The notes beneath the pieces were generated by a model. That model searched no databases and had not been told where the DNA came from. It saw only the letters and a list, made by a program, of their open reading frames with translations. Position numbers and translations under genes: made by a program. A stretch of DNA of 64,000 nt from positions 9,563-73,562 of the forward strand of contig JAJPKQ010000027.1 of the NCBI GenBank assembly GCA_021323635.1. Reading direction: 5' to 3'. Below, in pieces: positions 45,316 to 59,842 of this stretch (position 1 is the stretch's first letter; each line of letters begins with the position of its first letter). The stretch is from a bacterium. GTDB taxonomy: Bacteria > Actinomycetota > Thermoleophilia > Solirubrobacterales > Solirubrobacteraceae.

Positions 45316-46125
45316 TTAGCCGGTTGTGCTCGTCGCCGGGGTCAGTGGCTTGTAGAGCGTCTGCCAGGCGCGCTCCGCCCAGCCGGCGAGCAGACGCGCT
45401 AGCGCTGCGGTGATCACGCCAAGGATCGTATCGAGGATGAAGTGGTTGCCGGTCGCAATGATGACGAAGGCGATCAGCAGCGGGTAGAGGACCCAGAGCG
45501 CGCGCACGAGCAGCAGCTTCGTCTCTCGTGCCAGCGGCCAGCCGATGATCAGCGCAAAGGCGATATGCATCGAGGGGATCGCGGCATAGGGGTTGAAGAA
45601 GTCGGAGAAGAGGGCGCTGGACTGGGACATCTTCAGGCCCGTCACATCGGAGACCGAGTCGACGAAGCCCCACTCGGGAAGGAAGCGCGGCGGTGCCGTC
45701 GGATAGAGGTAGTAGCCGATCAGCGCCAGCCCCAGCGCTATCAGCAGGGTGTTGCGCACCGTGACGAAGACGGGGTTGCGGTAGAAGTAGATGAACAGAA
45801 GCGCAGCGACGGTGACGGTGAACTGCGCGTTTACGTACAACCAGCCGGCGATCGCCATCAGCGTGTGGGAGCCCGAGGCCCAGGTCTGGACGGCGGGCTC
45901 GACGAAGATGTGCACCGAGCGCTCGAGCGAGATCACTTCGCGCGCATGCTGGAATGCCGCGGTGCCGTCGTTCTCGACCACGCCGCGCACGACACGGTAG
46001 GCGACGTAGGCAAGGGCGAAGTAGCCGACCTGTCGCAGGAGATCGACGGGGCTGGCGGGAAAGCCCGGCCAGCGTATGCGCTTGAGCGGGGTGCGCACCC
46101 GCGGGAGCCTAGCGCAGGCCGCCAC
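45316..46125 (-). CDS. PAP2_3 / AUR1 (inositol-phosphoceramide-synthase-like) membrane phosphotransferase or phosphatase
   Basis: YPTAPPR, YAAIPSMH, ATGNHFILD catalytic His/His/Asp arrangement; about 6 TM helices. Confidence 0.82.
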   Translation of the reverse strand: MAACARLPRVRTPLKRIRWPGFPASPVDLLRQVGYFALAYVAYRVVRGVVENDGTAAFQHAREVISLERSVHIFVEPAVQTWASGSHTLMAIAGWLYVNAQFTVTVAALLFIYFYRNPVFVTVRNTLLIALGLALIGYYLYPTAPPRFLPEWGFVDSVSDVTGLKMSQSSALFSDFFNPYAAIPSMHIAFALIIGWPLARETKLLLVRALWVLYPLLIAFVIIATGNHFILDTILGVITAALARLLAGWAERAWQTLYKPLTPATSTTG

Positions 46126-47938
46126 CTGCGCCGCGCGCCCCCGGCGAGCGTGCAGTCGGCCCCCGGCAGCTGCGATGGCTGTCGCCCAGCAGCGCGCCGA
46201 GTGAGAAGCTGACCGTGATCCGCAGGGTGCCCGCGGCCGCCGCTTCGAGGATCGTCCAGTTGCCCGCCGCGCGAACGAGACATCCCGAGCCCTGCGCGAG
46301 CGTCCAGTAGCGCGAGAAGTGGAAGGCCAAGCGGTAGCGACCCGGATGCGGAGCGCTCACAAGCAGCGACTGCGGGCCGAGCTCAAGCAGCCGCGCCGGC
46401 GCCTGCACCAGCGGCGCCGCGTGCTCGACCGCGTAGAGGCGCCAGTCCCGGTTGCGCCAGAGCCGGTGCAGATAGGGCAGGCCGGCGCGGATCAGCCTGC
46501 CCTCGGGGCGCCCGGCGGAGTCCAGGCGCGCCTGCGGGAGGGCGACGTAGGAGACGGCGTTTTCTAAGAGCCAGCGCCGGTAGGCGGAGGCGCTCAGCTG
46601 CGGTCGGTAGAAGAGGGCGTTGTAGCGGGTGTCAAGCTGGCGCTCCCAGCCGCGCGCGAGCATCAGGCCGCCGCCGGGCAGGTAGGCAGCCTCCCAGTGC
46701 GCTCCGGTCATCGGGATCTCCACGCGCGTCGGCCTGCCGCGGCTGAGGCGCTGTAGCTCTGCGATCAGCGGCGCATAGAAGGTGCGCTTCACGGTGCGAT
46801 CGCCGGCCAGGGCAAGCTGGTCGTCGATCGCGGTTGCAAGCTGCCAGTAGAGCAGGAGCGGGGCGATCGCCGCGGCGATCGCAATCCAGGCCCGCGGCCT
46901 CAAGCTGCGCGCGATCGCAGCATTCCAGAGGCAGCCGAGCAGGAGCGGGGCACCGAAGAGCGCGCCCACGCGCACCGCGTTGCCGCCGAAGGGGCTCTCG
47001 ATCAGAAACGATCCGACCAGCAGGATCGCGTAGAGGAGCGCGCCGATGCGGATTGTGCGGTGCAGCCAGTGCGGCAGGTGCCCGTGGGGCAGCAGCATCG
47101 CGACCGCGAGGCCTGCTGCGAGCTCAGGCCAGAAGGCGCCCGCCACAAAGGGCTCATAGCCGCCTTCGGGGAAGGCGAGCACGAGCGCGGCGATCGGCGC
47201 CAGCGAGGCTGAGATCAGCAGCAGGGCGACCGCGAGCGCGTGGCGCGGGCACTCATCTGATCGCCTTGCGAGCCGGCGCGGTGATCGCGTGAAGGAGGTC
47301 AGGCGCCCCGCGAGCACACTGAGCGCCAGCGCGCCGCCGGCAAGCGCCAAGAAAACGCCCGCGACCGGGCTTGCGGTCGCAGAGAGCACGCAGAGCGCGC
47401 CGGCGGCCATGAGGGAGAGCAGCCGCGCTGGGCCTGCGGGCGGCGCATGGGCGAGCGCAACCAGCGCGAGCAGCCCGATCGCGCTGCCGACATCAAAGGG
47501 GACGCGACCGGAGGGCAGCTCGGCGCAGAAGCCGAAGGCAAAGCTGAGCGCGGCGGCGCGTGCGGCGCCGGCTGTTGAGAAGGCGCGCAGCGCAAGCAGC
47601 GCAAAGCCGCCCGCCGCGACCACGGCGGAGAGCGCAAGCAGCATGCGCAGGCCGATCGCCGCGCCCAGTGCCGGCACGATGATCGAGTAGGCAAGCAGGT
47701 AGTGGCCGGCATACCAGCCCGTGTCATAAAGCAGGAGGCCGTAGCGGGAGAAGAGGTCGGCGCGGTAGGTGGCGGCGGCGAGGTCGCCCGATGGCGGCGA
47801 GACCGCCAGATAGATGGCGGCGAGCAGGATCGCAAGCGCGAGCGCGGCTGCAACCGTCAGCCGCGGGGAGCCGATTGCGCGCGGGCTTGGGGGCGGCAGG
47901 GTTGCGGAGGCTGGCTCGGCTGTCTGCAGATGTGACAT
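46109..47938 (-). CDS. Polytopic membrane protein, possible GT-C-type glycosyltransferase
   Basis: 10 or more hydrophobic segments, acidic first loop SGDLAAATYRADLF followed by WYAGH, and a soluble C-terminal domain (RVEIP, ARGWERQLD). Fold assignment is an inference. Confidence 0.5.
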   Translation of the reverse strand: MSHLQTAEPASATLPPPSPRAIGSPRLTVAAALALAILLAAIYLAVSPPSGDLAAATYRADLFSRYGLLLYDTGWYAGHYLLAYSIIVPALGAAIGLRMLLALSAVVAAGGFALLALRAFSTAGAARAAALSFAFGFCAELPSGRVPFDVGSAIGLLALVALAHAPPAGPARLLSLMAAGALCVLSATASPVAGVFLALAGGALALSVLAGRLTSFTRSPRRLARRSDECPRHALAVALLLISASLAPIAALVLAFPEGGYEPFVAGAFWPELAAGLAVAMLLPHGHLPHWLHRTIRIGALLYAILLVGSFLIESPFGGNAVRVGALFGAPLLLGCLWNAAIARSLRPRAWIAIAAAIAPLLLYWQLATAIDDQLALAGDRTVKRTFYAPLIAELQRLSRGRPTRVEIPMTGAHWEAAYLPGGGLMLARGWERQLDTRYNALFYRPQLSASAYRRWLLENAVSYVALPQARLDSAGRPEGRLIRAGLPYLHRLWRNRDWRLYAVEHAAPLVQAPARLLELGPQSLLVSAPHPGRYRLAFHFSRYWTLAQGSGCLVRAAGNWTILEAAAAGTLRITVSFSLGALLGDSHRSCRGPTARSPGARGAGGGLR

Positions 47939-48124
47939 CGGGCGCCCGATTATCGTGCAGCAAGGGGATGTGCTCGCTGGTGGGATTGCGCGGCTCGGGC
48001 AGGGGGCGATCACGCGTCGGCGTAGCGCCGCGCGAGCCTTGTGGCGGTTTGCAGCTCAGCAGTATGGCCCGCCACGAACCTCCGGGTGGCGTGGCGACAC
48101 AGTCAATGTGAAAGGATCGCAACG

Positions 48125-50839: not shown

Positions 50840-53815
50840 GTGCACACCACCGTCGGCGAGGAGCGACTATACGACCGCGAGGGCGAGCTCACAAGCATCG
50901 GCGAGGTCTTTGATCAGGCGCGCGGCGGGAGCGGCGGCGCGCTGCTCATAGAAGGCGCTCCCGGTCTGGGCAAGAGCGCCCTGCTGCGCGCCGCCCGGCG
51001 AGGTGCGGGCGGGCTGCAGGTCCTGCACGGTGCCGGCGAGGAGCTTGAGCGCGGCTTCGCGTTCGGGGTCGCGCGCGACCTTTTCGCGCGGGCACTGCAG
51101 GCGCTCGATCAGAGAGCGCGCAGGCGCGCGCTGACCGGACCGGCTGGGCACGCCTGCGCTGCACTCGGGATTGGGACGGGGACGCGCTCAGTTGAAGGCA
51201 GGGTTGCTGGCCGGGCAGCTCGCGGCGCGCCGGCGTCCGCCTGGCCCGGCGCCGCAAGCGGCGCCGAGGGCGGCGGCCGCATCCTGCACGGCCTCTACTG
51301 CCTGCTCGTGAACCTCGCCGTGCGGGCGCCGCTCGCGCTTGTCCTCGACGATCTGCACTGGGTCGATCACTCCAGCCTGCACCTGCTTGCCTACGTGATC
51401 CGGCGGCTGGAGGGCCTGCCGGTGGCGATCGTGATGGCAACCCGTCCGCCGCGGTCCGGGCGTTTCGATGGCCTGGTGCAGCGGCTTGCCGCCGAGCGAT
51501 CCGTGCTCGTGCACACGCTCACGCCGCTTGGCGCCGAGGCGGTCGGGAGCTATCTGGAAGACCGCCTGGGAGGCCCAGTCGATGTGACCTTTGCCGAGAC
51601 GGCCCGCAGCCTCAGCGGCGGCGTCCCCTACCTGCTCGAGCATCTGGCGCCGGAGATCGAGCGTCGCGGTCTCCAAACAACCGAAGCCGAGATCGAGAAG
51701 CTGCTCATGCTCTCGCCGCAATCGCTCAGCCGCGTGATCAACGCGCGCCTTGCGGAGCTGCCGACAACTGCAAGATCGCTGGCATCTGCCGCGGCGATTC
51801 TGGGCTCGCGAGCGCGCCTGGACAGCTGCATCGCGCTCGCTCACCTGAGCGCGCCGGATGCGTTGCAGGCAATCGACGAGCTTGCGGCGCTTGCGGTCGC
51901 GCACATCGAGGGCGAGAAGATCGCGATCTCGCACCCGCTGCTGCGGCGTGCGCTGCTCGCCGACCTTGCGCCAGGGACGGCTGTGCGCATGCATCTTGAA
52001 GCGGCTGAGATGCTCGATCGGGAAAACGCCGAGCCGGCGGTGGTCGCAGCGCATCTGCTTGCCGCGCCGGTCCCGCAGGGCTCCCCGGCGGCGCGCAGCT
52101 GGGCGCTCGATCTGCTGCAGCGAGAGGCCGAGCGAGCGCTGGCGCAGGGCGCTCCGGCAGATGCCGCGCGGCTGCTGCGGCGCGCGCTGATCGAGGCGCA
52201 GGAGGCAAGCCAGAGAGCGACGCTGCTCTTCAAGCTCGGGGCCGCCGAGATCAGGGCTGGCGAGGCGGATGCCATCCGCCATCTGCGCGTTGCGGCGCGC
52301 TCGCTCCTCGATCCGGGCAAGCGCGCCGGCGCCCACCTCGAGCTCGGGCTCGCGCTGATCGCGCGCGGCGATCCAAATGGGGCGGTCGCGGTGCTGGACC
52401 AGGCGCTCGTCCGACTGGGCGAGGGGCCCGCCGCTGATCGGCGGCTGCGCGTTCGCCTGGAGGCGGAGCTGCTTGCGGCGGCGCGCATAGGGGGCGCCAA
52501 ACACGCCGACATCCTGCAGCGACTGCAGCGACTGGGCATGCCGGAGGGTGAAGGTCGCGAGCAGCGGCTGCTGCTCGGTGTGGTCGCGTTCGAGGCGCTG
52601 ATCGCCGGAGGGATGCAGGTCGGCGCCCTGCCACTGCAATCGGCGGACGCGGTCATTGCGCTTGCGCGACGGGCGCTCAGCGGCGATGCGTCGATCGAGC
52701 ACTCCGCCCACTCGCCGCCCTTGAACCTCGCCGCCTACGCGGCGGCAGCAAGCGACGATCTTGCATCCGCGCTCTGCTTTGCCCGCCAGACGCTGCAGCG
52801 CGCAGAGAAGAGCGGCAGCGTGCTCGGCTTCGCGATCGCCTCCTGCTGGCGCTCGCACTTTGCGCTGCGCGCCGGTGACCTGCGCCTGGCCGAGGAGGAT
52901 GCGCGCGCCTGCCTGGCAAGCGAAGATGCTCATCATTGGCGTCTCGGCCGTCCGGCTGCGGCCGCAAACCTGATCGAAGCGCTGCTGGGCGAGGGCAGGG
53001 TGGCCGAGGCTGAGCAGCTGAGCCTGAAGTTTGTGCCCGGCGAGCTCGCCGGCGCCGGGCTGATCGGCCTTGCACTGCGCGTCGCGATCGGCCGTGTGCA
53101 CCTACTCTGCGGACGCTATCGCGAGGCGGTCGCCGTGCTGGAGGCCTGCGGCGCGGAGTTCGATGGTATCGGGGCCAGAAACCCCGCGCTCAGCCGCTGG
53201 CGATCGCTGTGCGCGCTTGCCCTGGCGGGGGAGGAGAAGCACGAGCAGGCACGCGCGCTGGCTGCAGAGGAGATGGGGCTCGCACGCGCGTTTGGCTCCG
53301 AGAGCGCTTTTGGCTGCGCGCTGGTCACCTCGGCGCTGCTATCGGACTCGCGCCGCGAGCGCCGGGCGCTGCTTGAGGAGGCGGAGGCGGTGCTTGGCGG
53401 TTGCGGTGCGCGCCTGGACTGGGCGCACGCGCTGCTTGAGCTGGGCGCGCTGCATCGCCGCGAGGGCAGGCGCAGCACAGGGGTAGAGCTGCTGCAGAAG
53501 GCGCTCGACCTCGCCGAGCGGCTGGGGGCGGGCATGCTCAGAGAGCGTGCGCGGGCGGAGCTTGCAAGTGCTGGGCTCAGACCCAGACGGGCGCTGCTGA
53601 GCGGGCCGGAGTCGCTGACGGGCGCAGAGCTTCGCGTGGCTGAGGCGGCGGCCGCCGGGATGACAAATCGGGAGATCGCGCAGCGCCTGTATCTGTCGGT
53701 GAAGACCGTTGAAACCCACCTGCGCCATGCCTACCAGAAGCTTGACATCAGCTCGCGCAAGCAGCTGCCCAGCGTGCTCACGGTCGAGCCGGCAGGGCAG
53801 CGCGCGCCGCGCTGA
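50840..53815 (+). CDS. LAL / MalT-like AAA-ATPase LuxR regulator
   Basis: Walker A GAPGLGKS, Walker B VLDDLHW, TPR-like middle, C-terminal LTGAELRVA...TNREIAQRLYLSVKTVETHL. Confidence 0.92.
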   Translation: MHTTVGEERLYDREGELTSIGEVFDQARGGSGGALLIEGAPGLGKSALLRAARRGAGGLQVLHGAGEELERGFAFGVARDLFARALQALDQRARRRALTGPAGHACAALGIGTGTRSVEGRVAGRAARGAPASAWPGAASGAEGGGRILHGLYCLLVNLAVRAPLALVLDDLHWVDHSSLHLLAYVIRRLEGLPVAIVMATRPPRSGRFDGLVQRLAAERSVLVHTLTPLGAEAVGSYLEDRLGGPVDVTFAETARSLSGGVPYLLEHLAPEIERRGLQTTEAEIEKLLMLSPQSLSRVINARLAELPTTARSLASAAAILGSRARLDSCIALAHLSAPDALQAIDELAALAVAHIEGEKIAISHPLLRRALLADLAPGTAVRMHLEAAEMLDRENAEPAVVAAHLLAAPVPQGSPAARSWALDLLQREAERALAQGAPADAARLLRRALIEAQEASQRATLLFKLGAAEIRAGEADAIRHLRVAARSLLDPGKRAGAHLELGLALIARGDPNGAVAVLDQALVRLGEGPAADRRLRVRLEAELLAAARIGGAKHADILQRLQRLGMPEGEGREQRLLLGVVAFEALIAGGMQVGALPLQSADAVIALARRALSGDASIEHSAHSPPLNLAAYAAAASDDLASALCFARQTLQRAEKSGSVLGFAIASCWRSHFALRAGDLRLAEEDARACLASEDAHHWRLGRPAAAANLIEALLGEGRVAEAEQLSLKFVPGELAGAGLIGLALRVAIGRVHLLCGRYREAVAVLEACGAEFDGIGARNPALSRWRSLCALALAGEEKHEQARALAAEEMGLARAFGSESAFGCALVTSALLSDSRRERRALLEEAEAVLGGCGARLDWAHALLELGALHRREGRRSTGVELLQKALDLAERLGAGMLRERARAELASAGLRPRRALLSGPESLTGAELRVAEAAAAGMTNREIAQRLYLSVKTVETHLRHAYQKLDISSRKQLPSVLTVEPAGQRAPR

Positions 53816-55183: not shown

Positions 55184-55891
55184 TCAGGCGGCGCGTGCCA
55201 GCGCCTGGGCGCGCGCGGCGCTGATCTGCTCGAGCGCCCCGTCGATCACCCGGCCGAGGAAGGTCTCGCGGTCGTTGACATGCGGCAGCGGCTGCTGCGG
55301 CACGGGGACCTCCAGAAAAGCGCAGAGCGGCTCCCAGCCTTCCTTCACCTCCCACACCAGCAGACGCTCAGGCGGCACCGTCGCCTTGACCGCCTCATTG
55401 TGCGCATTAAAGGCCCTGATCAGCTGCTCGGGTGTCTCGTGGCCACCCGCAAAGCTCCCCTGCTCGCCCCAGAACATGCGCTCGACAAGCGCGACGTAAC
55501 GCTTCCAGCGCGGATCGACCAAGGCGCGCGCGGATGAAAGCAGATGGATCAGCGACTCGCCATGGCCCATGCTCCAGATCGTCTCGCGGAAGCTTCGCTC
55601 CCAGGCTGCCGGGTCCCGAACCGAGAGCAGGACCTTGGCGTCGGGGTAGGCTGCCAGCAGGCGCTCCCAGAAGTACCCGCCGGGCCAGTCGACGGTCGCC
55701 TGGAAGCCCGCGAAGACCTCCGCCCAGACCTCCTCTCCGTCCAGCGCCCGCTCCCAGACCGCCACCTGGTCGAGGTCTGCAAGCACGTTGACCCAGTGGT
55801 AGCAGGGCTCCAGGCCGAGCATCTCAAGCGCCACCTTCTGCGTCAGGGTTCCAGTGCGCGGCATGCCCGCGCCGATCAGCTTGATTGACAA
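55184..55891 (-). CDS. Stand-alone sulfotransferase-family protein (Sulfotransfer_4-like)
   Basis: IGAGMPRTGT PAPS-loop-like motif, PCYHW, ATVDWP, KVLLSVRD, EGWEPLCAFL...PLPHVN; AAGGAGG SD before TTG 55891. Confidence 0.85.
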   Translation of the reverse strand: MSIKLIGAGMPRTGTLTQKVALEMLGLEPCYHWVNVLADLDQVAVWERALDGEEVWAEVFAGFQATVDWPGGYFWERLLAAYPDAKVLLSVRDPAAWERSFRETIWSMGHGESLIHLLSSARALVDPRWKRYVALVERMFWGEQGSFAGGHETPEQLIRAFNAHNEAVKATVPPERLLVWEVKEGWEPLCAFLEVPVPQQPLPHVNDRETFLGRVIDGALEQISAARAQALARAA

Positions 55892-56069
55892 CTGCGCCTC
55901 CTTCTTTGCACGGTCGGGGCTGCGATTGTGCCAGGGCAGCGCGAGCGCTGCGCTGTGATCGCCTGCTGCCCGCGGCATCGGCCTCAGGCTCGGGTATCGT
56001 CTCTGTCGGCAGACGCGGGCGATTGCAGCCCGCCGGCGCCGGCGCGGCGCCCGATCAGGAGAAAGGCAG

Positions 56070-57965
56070 ATGCAGGCGAGCAATCCACAAGAGCAGCTGC
56101 AGGTGCTTGGCGCCGGCTTCGGGCGGACGGGCACGCTGTCGCTGAAGGTCGCTCTCGAGGAGCTGGGTGTCGCTCCCTGCCTGCACTCGCTGCAGTCCCG
56201 CGCGCCGCTCAGCGCCAGCAAGCACTGGCAGCGCCTTGCCGCGGGCGAGCAGATCGACTGGCGCGAGGCGCTTGCGGGCTTTCGCTCCAGCGTCGACTGG
56301 CTCTGCGCCCGCTACTACGAGCAGATCCTTGAGGCCTTCCCGCAGGTCAAGGTCGTGCTCTCGGTGCGTGAGCCGCAGGCTTGGTATGAGAGCGCGAGCG
56401 CGAGCCTGCACGCGGCACGCTCGCTGCGGCGCTCCTCGCCCGATGGCAGGTCGCAGGGCGCGCTCCTCGAGGCGGTCGATCGTGCGATCTGGCAGGAGCT
56501 CTTCGACGGGCGCTTCTGCGAGCGCGAGCATGCCCTTGCCGTCTTTGACCGCCACAGCAGGGAGGTGATCGCGCGCGTGCCCGCCTCCCAGCTGCTCGTA
56601 TACGACGTGCGCGAAGGCTGGGCGCCGCTGTGCGCCTTCCTGGGCGTGCCCGAGCCGAGCACGCCCTTTCCGCACCTCAACGGCCGTGAGGTCTTCTGGA
56701 CACGGATCGGGCGGCAGGCGGCAGGCGGCGAGGCTGAGGGTCAAGCGCAGCTTGGAGCGCTGATCACGCGGCGCCCCCAGCAGCTGCCCGACGTCGCCGG
56801 CGCCCCGCCGCGCCCGCGCTACGCCCGGCGGATACGCGGCGAAGCTGAGCGCGCGCGCGCCCGCGTCGCCTCAGGCGGCGAGCCGGCCGCCGGTGCCGGC
56901 ATGCAGCGGCGACCCTCCGTTCGGATTGGCGCGCTGGCGTGCGTCGATGGGCCGCGGGAGCTGAGCCAGCAGGAGGTGCTCGACCTGCTGGGGCTGCGCG
57001 GCGAGGCCTTTGCGGAGGGGGTCTTCGCGCGCTGCGGCGTGCAGCGCAGATGCCTTGACCTCGACGCGGCGATGCTCGGGCGCAGCCTGCAGGGGCGCAG
57101 CGCGCGCGTGGAGGAGCTGCTGCTCGAGCGCTCCTGCGCGGCATTCGAGCTGCTTGGCGCAGACCCCTCCGAGGTCTCGACCGTGATCAGCGCCTCGCTT
57201 GTCTCGCTGGGCTGCCCTTCGCTTGCCCACCGTCTGATCGAGCGGCTGGGCATGGACCCGAGCACCGACAAGTACCACCTGACGGGCGTTGGCTGCGCGA
57301 GCGCTGTGCCGCTGGTGCGCCTCGGTGCCCAGGCGCTGGCAGGGGACCCGACGCGCAAGGTGCTTGTGGTGGCGGCGGAGTCGATGAGCGCCCTGCTCTG
57401 CCAAGCCTCCGGCGATGACCCGCGAGCCAAGACGATCGGCTCGGCGATCTTCGGCGATGGCTGCGCGGCGCTGCTGCTTGAGGCAGAGCGGCCCGGCGCG
57501 GGCGCGCTTCCCGAAAGCGGGCCCCGCCCGCTGCCTGAGGTGATCGCCAGCGCGGTGCACCAGGTTCCAAGCTCGCTCGATGCGGTTGCCATGGCCTGCG
57601 ACTCGCAGGACTCCTATCTGGGCCTGATCCGCGAGCTGCCGGACATCGCGGGCGCGCAGCTGCGCCCGCTGGTGGACTCCTTCCTGGCCCGCCATGCGCT
57701 GACCGCGCACATGGTCGACCATTGGCTGCTTCACCCGGGCGGGCGGCGCATCATCGAATGCGCGCAGTCCGCGCTCGGGCTCGATCGCGACGCGGTTGCG
57801 ATCAGCTACGAGGTGCTTGCAGATCGCGGCAACGTTGGCACCCCCTCGATCTTCTACGTCCTGGAGCGGACGCTGCGCAAGCGCGCCCCGCAGACCGGCC
57901 AGCACGGGCTGCTGGTCACGATCGGCCCGGGCGTGACGGTCGGGCTGATGCTCGTGCGCTTCTGA
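56070..57965 (+). CDS. Sulfotransferase-type III polyketide synthase fusion
   Basis: N-terminal GAGFGRTGT...SVDW...EGWAPLCAFL...PFPHLN; ~65-aa linker; chalcone-synthase fold with catalytic triad GVGCAS (Cys), LHPGG (His), GNVGT (Asn), plus FGDG and GPG. Good SD (AGGAGAAAGG). Confidence 0.85.
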   Translation: MQASNPQEQLQVLGAGFGRTGTLSLKVALEELGVAPCLHSLQSRAPLSASKHWQRLAAGEQIDWREALAGFRSSVDWLCARYYEQILEAFPQVKVVLSVREPQAWYESASASLHAARSLRRSSPDGRSQGALLEAVDRAIWQELFDGRFCEREHALAVFDRHSREVIARVPASQLLVYDVREGWAPLCAFLGVPEPSTPFPHLNGREVFWTRIGRQAAGGEAEGQAQLGALITRRPQQLPDVAGAPPRPRYARRIRGEAERARARVASGGEPAAGAGMQRRPSVRIGALACVDGPRELSQQEVLDLLGLRGEAFAEGVFARCGVQRRCLDLDAAMLGRSLQGRSARVEELLLERSCAAFELLGADPSEVSTVISASLVSLGCPSLAHRLIERLGMDPSTDKYHLTGVGCASAVPLVRLGAQALAGDPTRKVLVVAAESMSALLCQASGDDPRAKTIGSAIFGDGCAALLLEAERPGAGALPESGPRPLPEVIASAVHQVPSSLDAVAMACDSQDSYLGLIRELPDIAGAQLRPLVDSFLARHALTAHMVDHWLLHPGGRRIIECAQSALGLDRDAVAISYEVLADRGNVGTPSIFYVLERTLRKRAPQTGQHGLLVTIGPGVTVGLMLVRF

Positions 57966-57980
57966 GCGGGACGCGGCTGC

Positions 57981-59597
57981 TCAGAGCAGCGCCGCATGGG
58001 CGCCTGCGCCTGCCCGCCCGCGCCTGATCAACAGCCCCGCCGCCACCCCGAGGAAGCTGACGATCGCGGCCACCAGGAGCGCGGTGTGCAGGCCGCTCAT
58101 GAAGGCGGCATGGCTGCCGGTCGCAACCGCGTGGGCAAGCGCGGGGCTTGCGCCTTTGAGCGCTGGCGTCGCGCCCTGGCCGACAAGCTCCTTGGCGGCT
58201 GCCAGCTGCCTTGCGATCGAGCTTGGCACGCCGGCCGCGTGCAGGGAGCGCGCGAGCACCGCGCCCACCTGCGTCGCCAGCACAGAGCCGAGGATCGCGG
58301 TGCCGACGACGCCGCCCAGCTGGACCGCGGTGGTCTGGATGCCGCCCGCGACCCCCGCCTCGTCGACGGGCGCGTTGGCGACGATCGCATCGGTCGAGGC
58401 GACCACGACCAGCCCGATGCCGATCCCCAGCAGCACGAATGAGGGCCAGAGGGCGCTGTATGGCGAGGAGGGCTCAAGTCCGAGCAGCAGCAGCAGCGCG
58501 ACGCCGGTCAGCCCCAGCCCGAGCGCGATCGGTGCCCGCGGCCCGAGGCGCCCGGTAAGGAGCGCTCCAAGCGGGCTTGAGATCGCGAAGACGAGCGTCA
58601 GCGGCAGCGTCCGCACGCCCGCAGCCACCGGGTCAAGGCCATGCACGTTCTGCAGATAGAGCGAGACGAAGAACAGCACCCCATACATCGCAAAGAAGGT
58701 CATCATTACCGTTAGCGTTCCCAGCGCGACCGAGCGTTGGCGGATCACACGCAGCGGGATCAGCGGCGCGCGCACGCGCGACTCGACCAGGCCGAAGGCG
58801 ATCAGCAGCGCGATCCCGCCGCCGAGCAGGGCGTCGATCCTGGCAGCTCCCCAGCCCCAGCTCTGTCCCTCGACGAAAGCAAAGACCAGACAGAAGAGGC
58901 CACCCGCAAGCAGCGTGAGCCCGAGCCCGTCGAGGGCCTGGCGCAGACGCTCGCGGTTCTCCGCCAATGCGAAGAGGCCGAGCGCCAGCGTGATCGCCGC
59001 GATCGGGGCGTTGATGAAGAAGACCGACTGCCAGGAGACATGCTCCACGAGCAGCCCGCCGACGATCGGCCCGGAGGCGGTGGCAAGCGCGGAGGTGCCG
59101 CCCCAGATGCCGACCGCCTGGTTGAGGCGCTCAACGGGGAAGGTGGCGCGCAGGAGGGCGAGCGTGTTTGGCATCAGCAGCGCGCCGAAGAGCCCCTGCA
59201 GCGTGCGCATGGCGATCACCCCGTCGATCGTGCCGATCACGCCGACGCCCACGGAGCTTGCGGCAAAGCCGACGACGCCGATCAGGAAGATGCGCTTGCG
59301 GCCGTAGCGGTCACCGATCTTGCCGCCTGCGATCAGCAGCACCGCGAGCGCAAGCAGGTAGGCGTTGGTGACCCATTGCAGGTCGGCGAGGGAGGCGTGC
59401 AGCGAGCGGGCGATGTAAGGGTTGGCGATCGAGACGACAGTGCCGTCGATGCCGACCATCAGCACGCCGAGCGAGACCGTCGCAAGCGTCAGCCAGGGGT
59501 TGCCGCGCAGCGGCCTGCGGGAGCGGGCGGCGGCGTGTGACAGCGGCCTGCCCACCGTCACGGCGGCAGGGCTTCTGAGGGTTGCGTTCGGCCTCAC
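57981..59597 (-). CDS. MFS DHA2 (EmrB/QacA-type) efflux transporter
   Basis: MVGIDGTVVSIANP, WVTNAYLL, GKIGDRYGRKR, GPIVGG, WQSVFFINAP; 14-TM pattern. Confidence 0.92.
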   Translation of the reverse strand: MRPNATLRSPAAVTVGRPLSHAAARSRRPLRGNPWLTLATVSLGVLMVGIDGTVVSIANPYIARSLHASLADLQWVTNAYLLALAVLLIAGGKIGDRYGRKRIFLIGVVGFAASSVGVGVIGTIDGVIAMRTLQGLFGALLMPNTLALLRATFPVERLNQAVGIWGGTSALATASGPIVGGLLVEHVSWQSVFFINAPIAAITLALGLFALAENRERLRQALDGLGLTLLAGGLFCLVFAFVEGQSWGWGAARIDALLGGGIALLIAFGLVESRVRAPLIPLRVIRQRSVALGTLTVMMTFFAMYGVLFFVSLYLQNVHGLDPVAAGVRTLPLTLVFAISSPLGALLTGRLGPRAPIALGLGLTGVALLLLLGLEPSSPYSALWPSFVLLGIGIGLVVVASTDAIVANAPVDEAGVAGGIQTTAVQLGGVVGTAILGSVLATQVGAVLARSLHAAGVPSSIARQLAAAKELVGQGATPALKGASPALAHAVATGSHAAFMSGLHTALLVAAIVSFLGVAAGLLIRRGRAGAGAHAALL

Positions 59598-59603
59598 GGG
59601 CGG

Positions 59604-59633
59604 AGCATAGCATAAATGGCAGGAACTGCCATT
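59604..59633 (-). promoter_or_regulatory. MFS promoter overlapped by an inverted-repeat operator
   Basis: Perfect IR AATGGCAG-gaa-CTGCCATT (59615-59633); minus strand TGGCAG-16 nt-TATGCT-6 nt-GTG(59597); a further CTGCCA half-site at ~59643. Confidence 0.65.
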
Positions 59634-59842
59634 CGGCGTATACTGCCACAACTTGTGTGATCTGTTCCATGCCTGGGGTTGCTCCGCGCCATCCGCGCTC
59701 ACCCTCACCAGGAGTCCGGCGCTCGTGCGGCTGCCGGTGGGACTGAGATACTCCGCGCGGAAGTGCGGCGCGGCGGCACGTCATTTAGAGGCCGCACGCG
59801 CGCTGCAGCTAGGCATGCGAACGACGATCGAGAGGCCACAGC

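Follow-up and report, generated by a model that had tools for sequence, protein, structure and literature searches.

A conserved sulfotransferase-type III polyketide synthase fusion in Solirubrobacterales, probably a source of sulfated polyketides

We studied a gene that joins a sulfotransferase (ST) to a type III polyketide synthase (PKS) in one polypeptide. It lies in a stretch of 64,000 nucleotides (hereafter the window) from an uncultured soil bacterium of the family Solirubrobacteraceae (contig JAJPKQ010000027.1, positions 9,563 to 73,562). Type III PKSs nearly always stand alone. Taking the evidence jointly, the best explanation, which we hold with good though not full confidence, is that the gene encodes a bifunctional ST-PKS which makes a sulfated polyketide, most likely as a sulfate donor for exported arylsulfate sulfotransferases (ASSTs).

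Results

The fusion gene and its domains

The gene forms one open reading frame (ORF), and its ATG start is found 8 bases after AGGAGAAAGG. The coordinates of all features are collected in Table 1. In the Pfam search Sulfotransfer_4 (PF17784) covered residues 11-207 (E 7e-52; 176.8 bits compared to a cut-off of 22.8 bits). Residues 345-631 were matched by Chal_sti_synt_C, FAE1_CUT1_RppA and Chal_sti_synt_N, each of which exceeded its gathering cut-off (53 bits for Chal_sti_synt_C and 35.5 bits for Chal_sti_synt_N, with a cut-off of 27 bits in both cases). The codons of the PKS triad were read directly in the DNA: Cys409 is TGC at 57294-57296, His555 is CAC at 57732-57734 and Asn588 is AAC at 57831-57833. 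A preliminary description of this stretch had reported a single ORF with a good Shine-Dalgarno sequence, an ST with the GAGFGRTGT loop and a PKS with a Cys-His-Asn triad, and had proposed a scan with the PF17784 and chalcone-synthase models. The Pfam matches, all above cut-off, and the codon reading agree with it. The Ala/Arg/Pro linker of ~65 aa that it described was seen as ~69 aa, with Gly among the frequent residues.

Table 1. Coordinates of the features discussed in the text (window positions unless another contig is given)
Feature	Position	Strand	Details
ST1-PKS fusion gene	56070..57965	+	631 aa, single open frame
N-terminal Cpz8-family ST domain, residues 1-214	56070..56711	+	PF17784, 44% identity to Cpz8
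ST 5'-phosphosulfate loop G14-T22 (GAGFGRTGT)	56109-56135	+	motif
ST 3'-phosphate motif S98..R100..S108	56361-56393	+	motif
Linker, residues 215-283, ~69 aa, Ala/Arg/Gly/Pro-rich	56712..56918	+	disorder predicted except helix 250-265
Type III PKS domain, residues 284-631	56919..57965	+	Cys409, Phe461, His555, Asn588, IGPG loop 618-621
ST2, second stand-alone Cpz8-family ST, divergent to the fusion	55184..55891	-	PF17784, E 1e-63
Divergent intergenic region ST2/fusion, 178 bp	55892..56069	.	shared promoter region presumed
Convergent major facilitator superfamily (MFS) transporter, DHA2-like	57981..59708	-	MFS_1, E 9e-58
PiT/PHO4-type permease, adenosine 5'-phosphosulfate (APS) kinase, secreted ASST and MFS-ASST side by side	G000 C33:77636-85625 (L087 7637-15626)

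The linker is open in the frame of the gene alone and has stops in the other two frames. Its GC content at third codon positions is 0.83, compared to 0.88 in both domains. Across the homologues its length ranges from ~20 to 70 aa while both flanking domains are conserved. We modelled the fusion protein with AlphaFold2, using an alignment of 111 sequences as input, and obtained a mean predicted local distance difference test (pLDDT) score of 84.9 and a predicted template modelling score of 0.72. Most of both domains reached pLDDT values of ~85-97 (the ST domain mostly 85-95), and values below 50 were confined to residues 215-247 and 265-278. The model thus predicts a linker that is disordered apart from the helix at residues 250-265.

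Conservation of the fusion

The identical protein is present on 4 public contigs. Homologues with both domains fell into ~105 clusters at 90% identity, with identities of 42-71% and lengths of 555-636 aa. They come from Solirubrobacterales genomes and from metagenomes, and are labelled only 'sulfotransferase [Solirubrobacteraceae bacterium]' at NCBI and 'predicted naringenin-chalcone synthase' at JGI. Clustering at 50% reduced the family to ~2 full-length representatives. The family is compact and, among the genomes with visible names, restricted to Solirubrobacterales. In 4 GTDB species genomes (loci L001-L004) the fusion is one uninterrupted frame, and in a tree of the ST domains the fused ones (n=35) formed a single clade with a Shimodaira-Hasegawa-like approximate likelihood ratio test (SH-aLRT) value of 99. 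The fusion is real and conserved. No fusion in the reverse order (PKS-ST) was found among the best 150 representatives.

We also considered whether the fusion could have arisen from stop-loss, a frameshift or mis-assembly, or whether a separate PKS could be made from the internal ATG at 56901, which falls within the linker. In many relatives the PKS does stand alone, with an N-terminus that aligns close to residue 280, and the linker is of low complexity. However, the clusters with both domains are independent of each other, the frame is open in all four species genomes, and the protein recurs unchanged on several contigs. The monophyletic clade of fused STs has also diverged to ~40% identity and is still in frame. 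The preliminary description had named a stop near 56720 followed by a separate PKS as the mark of an artefact. No stop near 56720 with a co-directional PKS was encountered, and at least 96 fused proteins, with their STs in one clade, were found instead. Because the fusion is conserved, an artefact is very unlikely, and we give it, together with the separate PKS, next to no weight. No Shine-Dalgarno sequence precedes the internal ATG. An additional internal start in the fusion gene is conceivable.

The sulfotransferase half

The closest solved structure to the ST domain is PDB 9kf1 (E 7e-55), deposited as 'Sulfotransferase family protein', followed by SgdX2 (E 5e-42) and then by the oxamniquine sulfotransferases of schistosomes. 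Over the ~80 N-terminal residues that were compared, the 9kf1 sequence matches the translated codon-optimised cpz8 gene found in the supplement to PMC6731281, and because of this match we identify 9kf1, from its sequence, as Cpz8. The deposition title of 9kf1/9kf2 contains just the family name and not that of Cpz8, and we found no publication for 9kf1/9kf2 or for 9kf4/9kf6. With Cpz8 the ST domain shares 44% identity, so that the analogy with Cpz6 and Cpz8 drawn in the preliminary description becomes direct homology for this half of the protein. Cpz8 depends on 3'-phosphoadenosine 5'-phosphosulfate (PAPS); it sulfates triketide pyrones that come from the type III PKS Cpz6, after which Cpz4, an enzyme of the ASST type, moves the sulfate onto caprazamycin (PMC6731281, PMC4924298).

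The loop R19-T-G-T22 and the residues R100, S108, H39 and H162 were invariant in 96 fused homologues. The window protein carries both PAPS motifs, GxGxxRTGT for the 5'-phosphosulfate and SVR(D/E)P..WY.S for the 3'-phosphate. The doubt raised earlier that the domain might not use PAPS was not upheld, given that every PAPS-binding motif is kept and given the similarity to Cpz8, and we assign this half as a sulfotransferase of the Cpz8 type, predicted to depend on PAPS. A literature search on PF17784 returned nothing on bacterial polyketides. Proteins or loci with two tandem PF17784 domains occur in Ktedonobacterales and others (P0140, P0168, P0205; L055 8001-9562), and in the fragment P0199 a PF17784 domain is joined to an AMP-binding domain.

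The polyketide synthase half

Among the matches listed for the PKS half in a search of PDB sequences, 60 of 60 were type III PKSs, the best being Pks11 (E 3e-29). Foldseek against the PDB likewise returned type III PKSs only, with M. tuberculosis PKS11 (4jao) as the best fit (template modelling score 0.88-0.89, root-mean-square deviation 2.3 Å). C409, H555 and N588, the gatekeeper F461 at the position of Phe215 in chalcone synthase (CHS), and G619-P620-G621 were invariant in 111 homologues. From these matches we take the C-terminal half to be a complete but divergent type III PKS.

We could place this half in no named equivalog, because the best NCBIfam match, to 3,5-dihydroxyphenylacetyl-CoA synthase DpgA (NF042429), reached 137 bits and is far below the cut-off of 425. 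Orthology to Cpz6 was rejected as well: in a tblastn comparison against plasmids the identity to pyrone synthases of the VioA/Cpz6 type was at most ~33%.

In a tree of the PKS domains the fused ones formed 2-3 groups among stand-alone ones, with weak deep nodes. The group of the window was sister (83) to a clade whose loci also bear ASST genes. The tree is compatible both with a single fusion followed by later fissions and with reshuffling of domains, and does not separate the two histories. A predicted protein of 4818 aa (P0121) contains 12 stretches similar to the type III PKS domain (26% identity) and could be a giant repeat protein or an artefact of gene calling.

Arrangement of the two activities in related loci

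We compared the layouts of ST and PKS genes by tblastn with each domain across 80 related loci. The window itself encodes a second ST (ST2), divergent to the fusion gene, whose likely start is the TTG at 55891 behind GAAGGAGG. ST2 is 45% identical to Cpz8. In the ST tree its clade is separate from the fused STs (support 98) and is placed, with weak support, near Cpz8 and SgdX2. The genome of the window encodes a third PF17784 ST (ST3; G000 C33:170222-171118, L088 7223-8119) with no PKS nearby, which forms a basal branch of the ST2 clade.

Four layouts were observed. In ~40 Solirubrobacterales loci a stand-alone PKS is divergent to an orthologue of ST2 (56-77% identity); this layout is commoner among the relatives than the fusion. 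ST2 together with the ST1-PKS fusion was seen in the window and in L001-L004. In a third layout a gene of the ST2 type precedes the PKS and both are on one strand (L020, L030, G057, G007), in some cases with a GTGA overlap of stop and start. In the fourth the PKS is followed by a gene of the ST1 type (Thermoleophilaceae, Conexibacter and genus g22). In the ST tree the fused clade is closest to solo STs of Solirubrobacterales and to those of this fourth layout. A Cpz8-like ST accompanies this PKS clade whether the two are divergent, in the order ST-then-PKS, in the order PKS-then-ST or fused. By a Rosetta-stone argument, this suggests that STs of the Cpz8 family and this PKS clade act on one molecule.

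At ~16 loci (L006-L017, L024, L026, L034, L042, L047, L052) the divergent pair of ST2 and PKS is flanked by genes for F420 biosynthesis, with cofD upstream and cofE downstream of it, together with a fused fbiC-like radical-SAM gene. This neighbourhood may be mere synteny. An RPE65-family dioxygenase and a PadR regulator lie near the pair in 9-10 loci.

Linkage to arylsulfate sulfotransferases and supply of PAPS

By clustering the ORFs of the related loci we found that 17 of 55 PKS loci directly adjoin Arylsulfotran_2 (PF14269) genes of ~600-650 aa and genes of ~1000-1100 aa in which an MFS transporter is fused to an ASST. In G057 an ASST, then ST2 and the PKS, then an MFS-ASST and then another ASST follow each other inside 11 kb, and G007 is similar. 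In G116, which belongs to the genus of the window, the PKS stands beside four ASST genes and an MFS gene. Across these three the set of ASST, ST2, PKS and MFS-ASST spans 11-19 kb. The MFS-ASST fusions combine a DHA2-like MFS with a C-terminal Arylsulfotran_2 domain (for example L014 1900-4962 on the minus strand and L037 11084-14314 on the plus strand) and were also present in L018, L019, L025, L028, L029, L032, L033, L036, L044, L045 and L062. This joining of domains suggests a coupling between export and the transfer of sulfate.

The genome of the window (2.64 Mb in 46 contigs, 97.5% complete) has six PF14269 genes, and each of the other four species genomes with the fusion contains 6-8 ASST paralogues, including open frames of ~1000 aa. 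The closest structure to an ASST of the window's genome is PDB 9kf6/9kf4 ('Sulfotransferase', 472 aa; E 1e-75). This entry comes from the same deposition series as Cpz8 and is probably Cpz4. The common layout with divergent ST2, the window's own ST2 and the linkage of the relatives to Cpz4-like exported ASSTs were all out of sight of the preliminary description.

An ASST (625 aa) and an MFS-ASST (1179 aa) lie directly downstream of the only APS kinase of the window's genome (C33:79091; 283 aa with an N-terminal extension of ~80 aa), next to a PiT-type permease (Table 1). The adjacency of APS kinase and ASST recurs in G122, G134 and G119. CysD scored above its equivalog cut-off in the window's genome, and no Sat-type sulfurylase was found there. 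Because APS kinase and CysD are both present, the gene content indicates that PAPS can be made, by way of CysD(N) and the APS kinase.

All three stand-alone ASSTs examined in the window's genome carry an N-terminal signal or anchor. In the MFS-ASST fusions the last transmembrane helix is found at the position of the signal peptide of the stand-alone ASSTs; a hydropathy count gave 14-16 helices, which does not settle the topology. Because of the signals and anchors and the position of that helix, the ASST domains would be expected to work outside the cytoplasm.

A proposed mechanism

We infer the following scheme, from the substrates through the chemistry and export to the hand-over, from the features above. 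The PKS half, presumably as a homodimer with Cys409-His555-Asn588, would condense an acyl-CoA starter with malonyl-CoA units to a small hydroxylated aromatic or pyrone polyketide. The tethered ST half would then use PAPS to place a sulfate ester on a hydroxyl of this product, to give what is probably a sulfated phenol or pyrone. The fusion would fix a 1:1 ratio of the activities and hold a poorly soluble or reactive product beside the ST. ST2 may act on that scaffold too, where it would sulfate a second hydroxyl or load the carrier anew. An MFS pump would export the sulfated polyketide, and the six exported proteins of the ASST family would take the sulfate from it and pass it to acceptors outside the cytoplasm, as in the relay of Cpz6, Cpz8 and Cpz4. 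For the window's genome we consider export and use as an ASST donor, by analogy with that relay, to have a slightly better than even chance; that the sulfated polyketide is kept as a sulfolipid or signal is clearly less likely, though still a serious candidate.

Points against the relay and other readings of the product

Several observations weigh against this scheme. The PKS half is no orthologue of Cpz6. The ASST genes of the window's genome are on other contigs and unlinked to the fusion gene. The MFS transporter, an ABC transporter and a TetR regulator of the window are not conserved beside the fusion, and neither are a LAL-type regulator and endonuclease III. As these genes are unconserved we did not count any of them as part of a cluster.

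The distribution across the order is another such point. In a sample of 151 genomes the PKS clade was present in 14 and ASSTs in 60, and just 7 of the 14 PKS-bearing genomes had an ASST, which is no enrichment over the sample as a whole. The proposed relay therefore rests on physical linkage and copy number. An APS kinase was present in all 14, which is uninformative since 81% of the order's genomes have one. The 7 PKS-bearing genomes in which no ASST homologue was found all belong to genus g22 and have the layout with the PKS first, and two Thermoleophilaceae genomes with PKS and ST likewise have no ASST. Because of these genomes the PKS/ST pair can evidently work without the relay.

A further point concerns the catalytic residues of the ST half. 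In the alignment, D76 of the window protein falls on the Asp in the T-T-D motif of the Schistosoma oxamniquine sulfotransferase, which is the catalytic Asp there. In the 96 fused homologues this position is Asp in 47 and Gly in 49 cases. Either H39 or H162 would then be the base, or half of the family would have an altered ST.

The genomes of g22 and Thermoleophilaceae also favour a reading with the same two activities in which the sulfated polyketide is itself the end product: a sulfated alkylresorcinol or alkylpyrone that serves as an envelope sulfolipid, signal or bioactive compound, comparable to the sulfated adipostatins (sulfatostatins, panosialin type). In the characterised adp cluster a type III PKS occurs together with an ST and PAPS genes, and the cluster yields mono- and di-sulfated alkylresorcinols (PMC12135136). 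No ASST lies beside the fusion gene in the window's genome or in L001-L004, and two STs per locus would suit a di-sulfated resorcinol. However, AdpST, which carries out di-sulfation alone, and the ST of the window fall into different ST families, the latter into that of Cpz8. The adjacency of ASSTs to almost a third of the related loci and the richness in ASSTs of all five fusion-bearing genomes speak for a donor role instead. We consider an end product less likely than a donor, though a serious candidate, and the same holds for its variant in which ST1 and ST2 sulfate two hydroxyls of one molecule.

A different role for the ST half would be that of an 'activating' sulfotransferase, where sulfation would prepare a hydroxyl to leave in an elimination or substitution, as for SgdX2 in sungeidine biosynthesis and for CurM, and the final product is free of sulfate. 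This is suggested by the rank of SgdX2 as the second-closest structure; its depositors call it an 'activating sulfotransferase', a term found in a title cited by PMC11677658. Cpz8 is closer, however, and no elimination partner, be it a thioesterase or another enzyme, is conserved nearby. The phenolic or enolic hydroxyls that type III PKSs produce would also lend themselves poorly to sulfate elimination, and the linkage to ASSTs would be left unexplained. We regard this role as very improbable, and retain the sulfated polyketide as donor for ASSTs as the preferred reading.

Neighbourhood of the fusion gene in the window

ST2 is the only neighbour of the fusion gene that is conserved among the relatives. 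The MFS transporter of the window shares ~32% identity with the MFS portion of the relatives' MFS-ASST fusions, and its position is not conserved; it is a possible exporter whose membership in the system is uncertain. A scan of the intergenic region between ST2 and the fusion for promoters found no sigma-70 consensus, which is uninformative in this high-GC lineage. The promoter and terminator scans found nothing. The LAL-type regulator (991 aa; AAA_16, TPR and GerE/LuxR domains) is encoded at 50840-53815 on the plus strand, ~1.4 kb upstream of ST2 in window coordinates. An ORF of 634 aa at 46109-48013 on the minus strand has no Pfam match and belongs to a group of inositol-lipid genes that was pointed out in the preliminary description.

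Discussion

If the preferred reading holds, the fusion shows the caprazamycin logic of a polyketide as sulfate reagent far outside antibiotic clusters. A 2026 review notes that for most bacterial aryl-sulfotransferases neither the natural substrates nor the physiological roles are known (PMC13426309). One expressible protein that is expected to make a natural ASST donor would make the question of the donor directly testable, and the window's genome also offers ASST genes to go with it, as well as MFS-ASST fusions and an adjacent APS kinase. A self-contained maker of aryl-sulfate donors could furthermore be useful for PAPS-free biocatalytic sulfation.

More tentatively, and with rather less than even confidence, we suggest that Solirubrobacterales may run a general extracytoplasmic sulfation that is independent of antibiotics. 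In such a pathway the fusion would make a small polyketide carrier and charge it with sulfate from PAPS, MFS pumps, some of them covalently fused to an ASST domain, would export it, the 6-8 ASSTs would transfer the sulfate to acceptors of the envelope or the environment, and ST2 would re-charge the carrier. If true, long-sought natural donors of bacterial aryl-sulfotransferases would be identified across a whole lineage.

We found no description of an ST-type III PKS fusion in the searched literature, as the preliminary description had also stated for characterised proteins. Several known systems share parts of the arrangement. Steely1 and Steely2 of Dictyostelium are among the rare cases in which a type III PKS is joined to a different biosynthetic module, there one similar to a type I fatty acid synthase. 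Their partner supplies the starter upstream and does no tailoring of the product, and it is not an ST. In CurM and OLS an ST domain is covalently joined to a polyketide synthase and acts on its product, as proposed here. These are, however, modular type I PKSs with a substrate bound to an acyl carrier protein and an ST of another family, and the sulfate is a leaving group for decarboxylative chain release. In the actinobacterium M. tuberculosis the gene of a type III PKS (Pks18) adjoins an ST gene (Rv1373) in the rv1371-rv1373 operon (PMC13141999). The genes are separate and the reported substrates of Rv1373 are glycolipids, which are not known to be linked to the product of Pks18.

The adp cluster of Streptomyces davaonensis (AdpPKS, AdpST and a PAPS cassette) is similar in that a type III PKS is encoded together with a PAPS-dependent ST which sulfates its product, and in its linkage to PAPS genes. 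It differs in that the genes are separate, AdpST is close to the STs of lanthipeptides, the alkylresorcinol mono- or di-sulfate is the end product and no ASST is involved. Apart from adp, only cpz and tot have been listed as ST clusters that contain a type III PKS, with separate genes in every case (PMC12135136).

The fusion of a type III PKS to a product-sulfating enzyme thus appears to be undescribed, and by analogy it would work like Cpz6, Cpz8 and Cpz4. These proteins of Streptomyces sp. MK730-62F2, with counterparts such as LipE in the liposidomycin and A-90289 clusters, are alike in their components, a type III PKS, a PF17784 ST and an ASST, and Cpz8 is 44-45% identical to both STs of the window. 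Unlike in the caprazamycin system, the ST and the PKS form one polypeptide here and a second ST paralogue is kept, there is no cluster for a liponucleoside or another antibiotic, and the PKS is not orthologous to Cpz6. The stand-alone ASSTs examined here also differ in carrying signals or anchors, and other ASST domains in being fused to an MFS transporter, which points to sulfation outside the cytoplasm.

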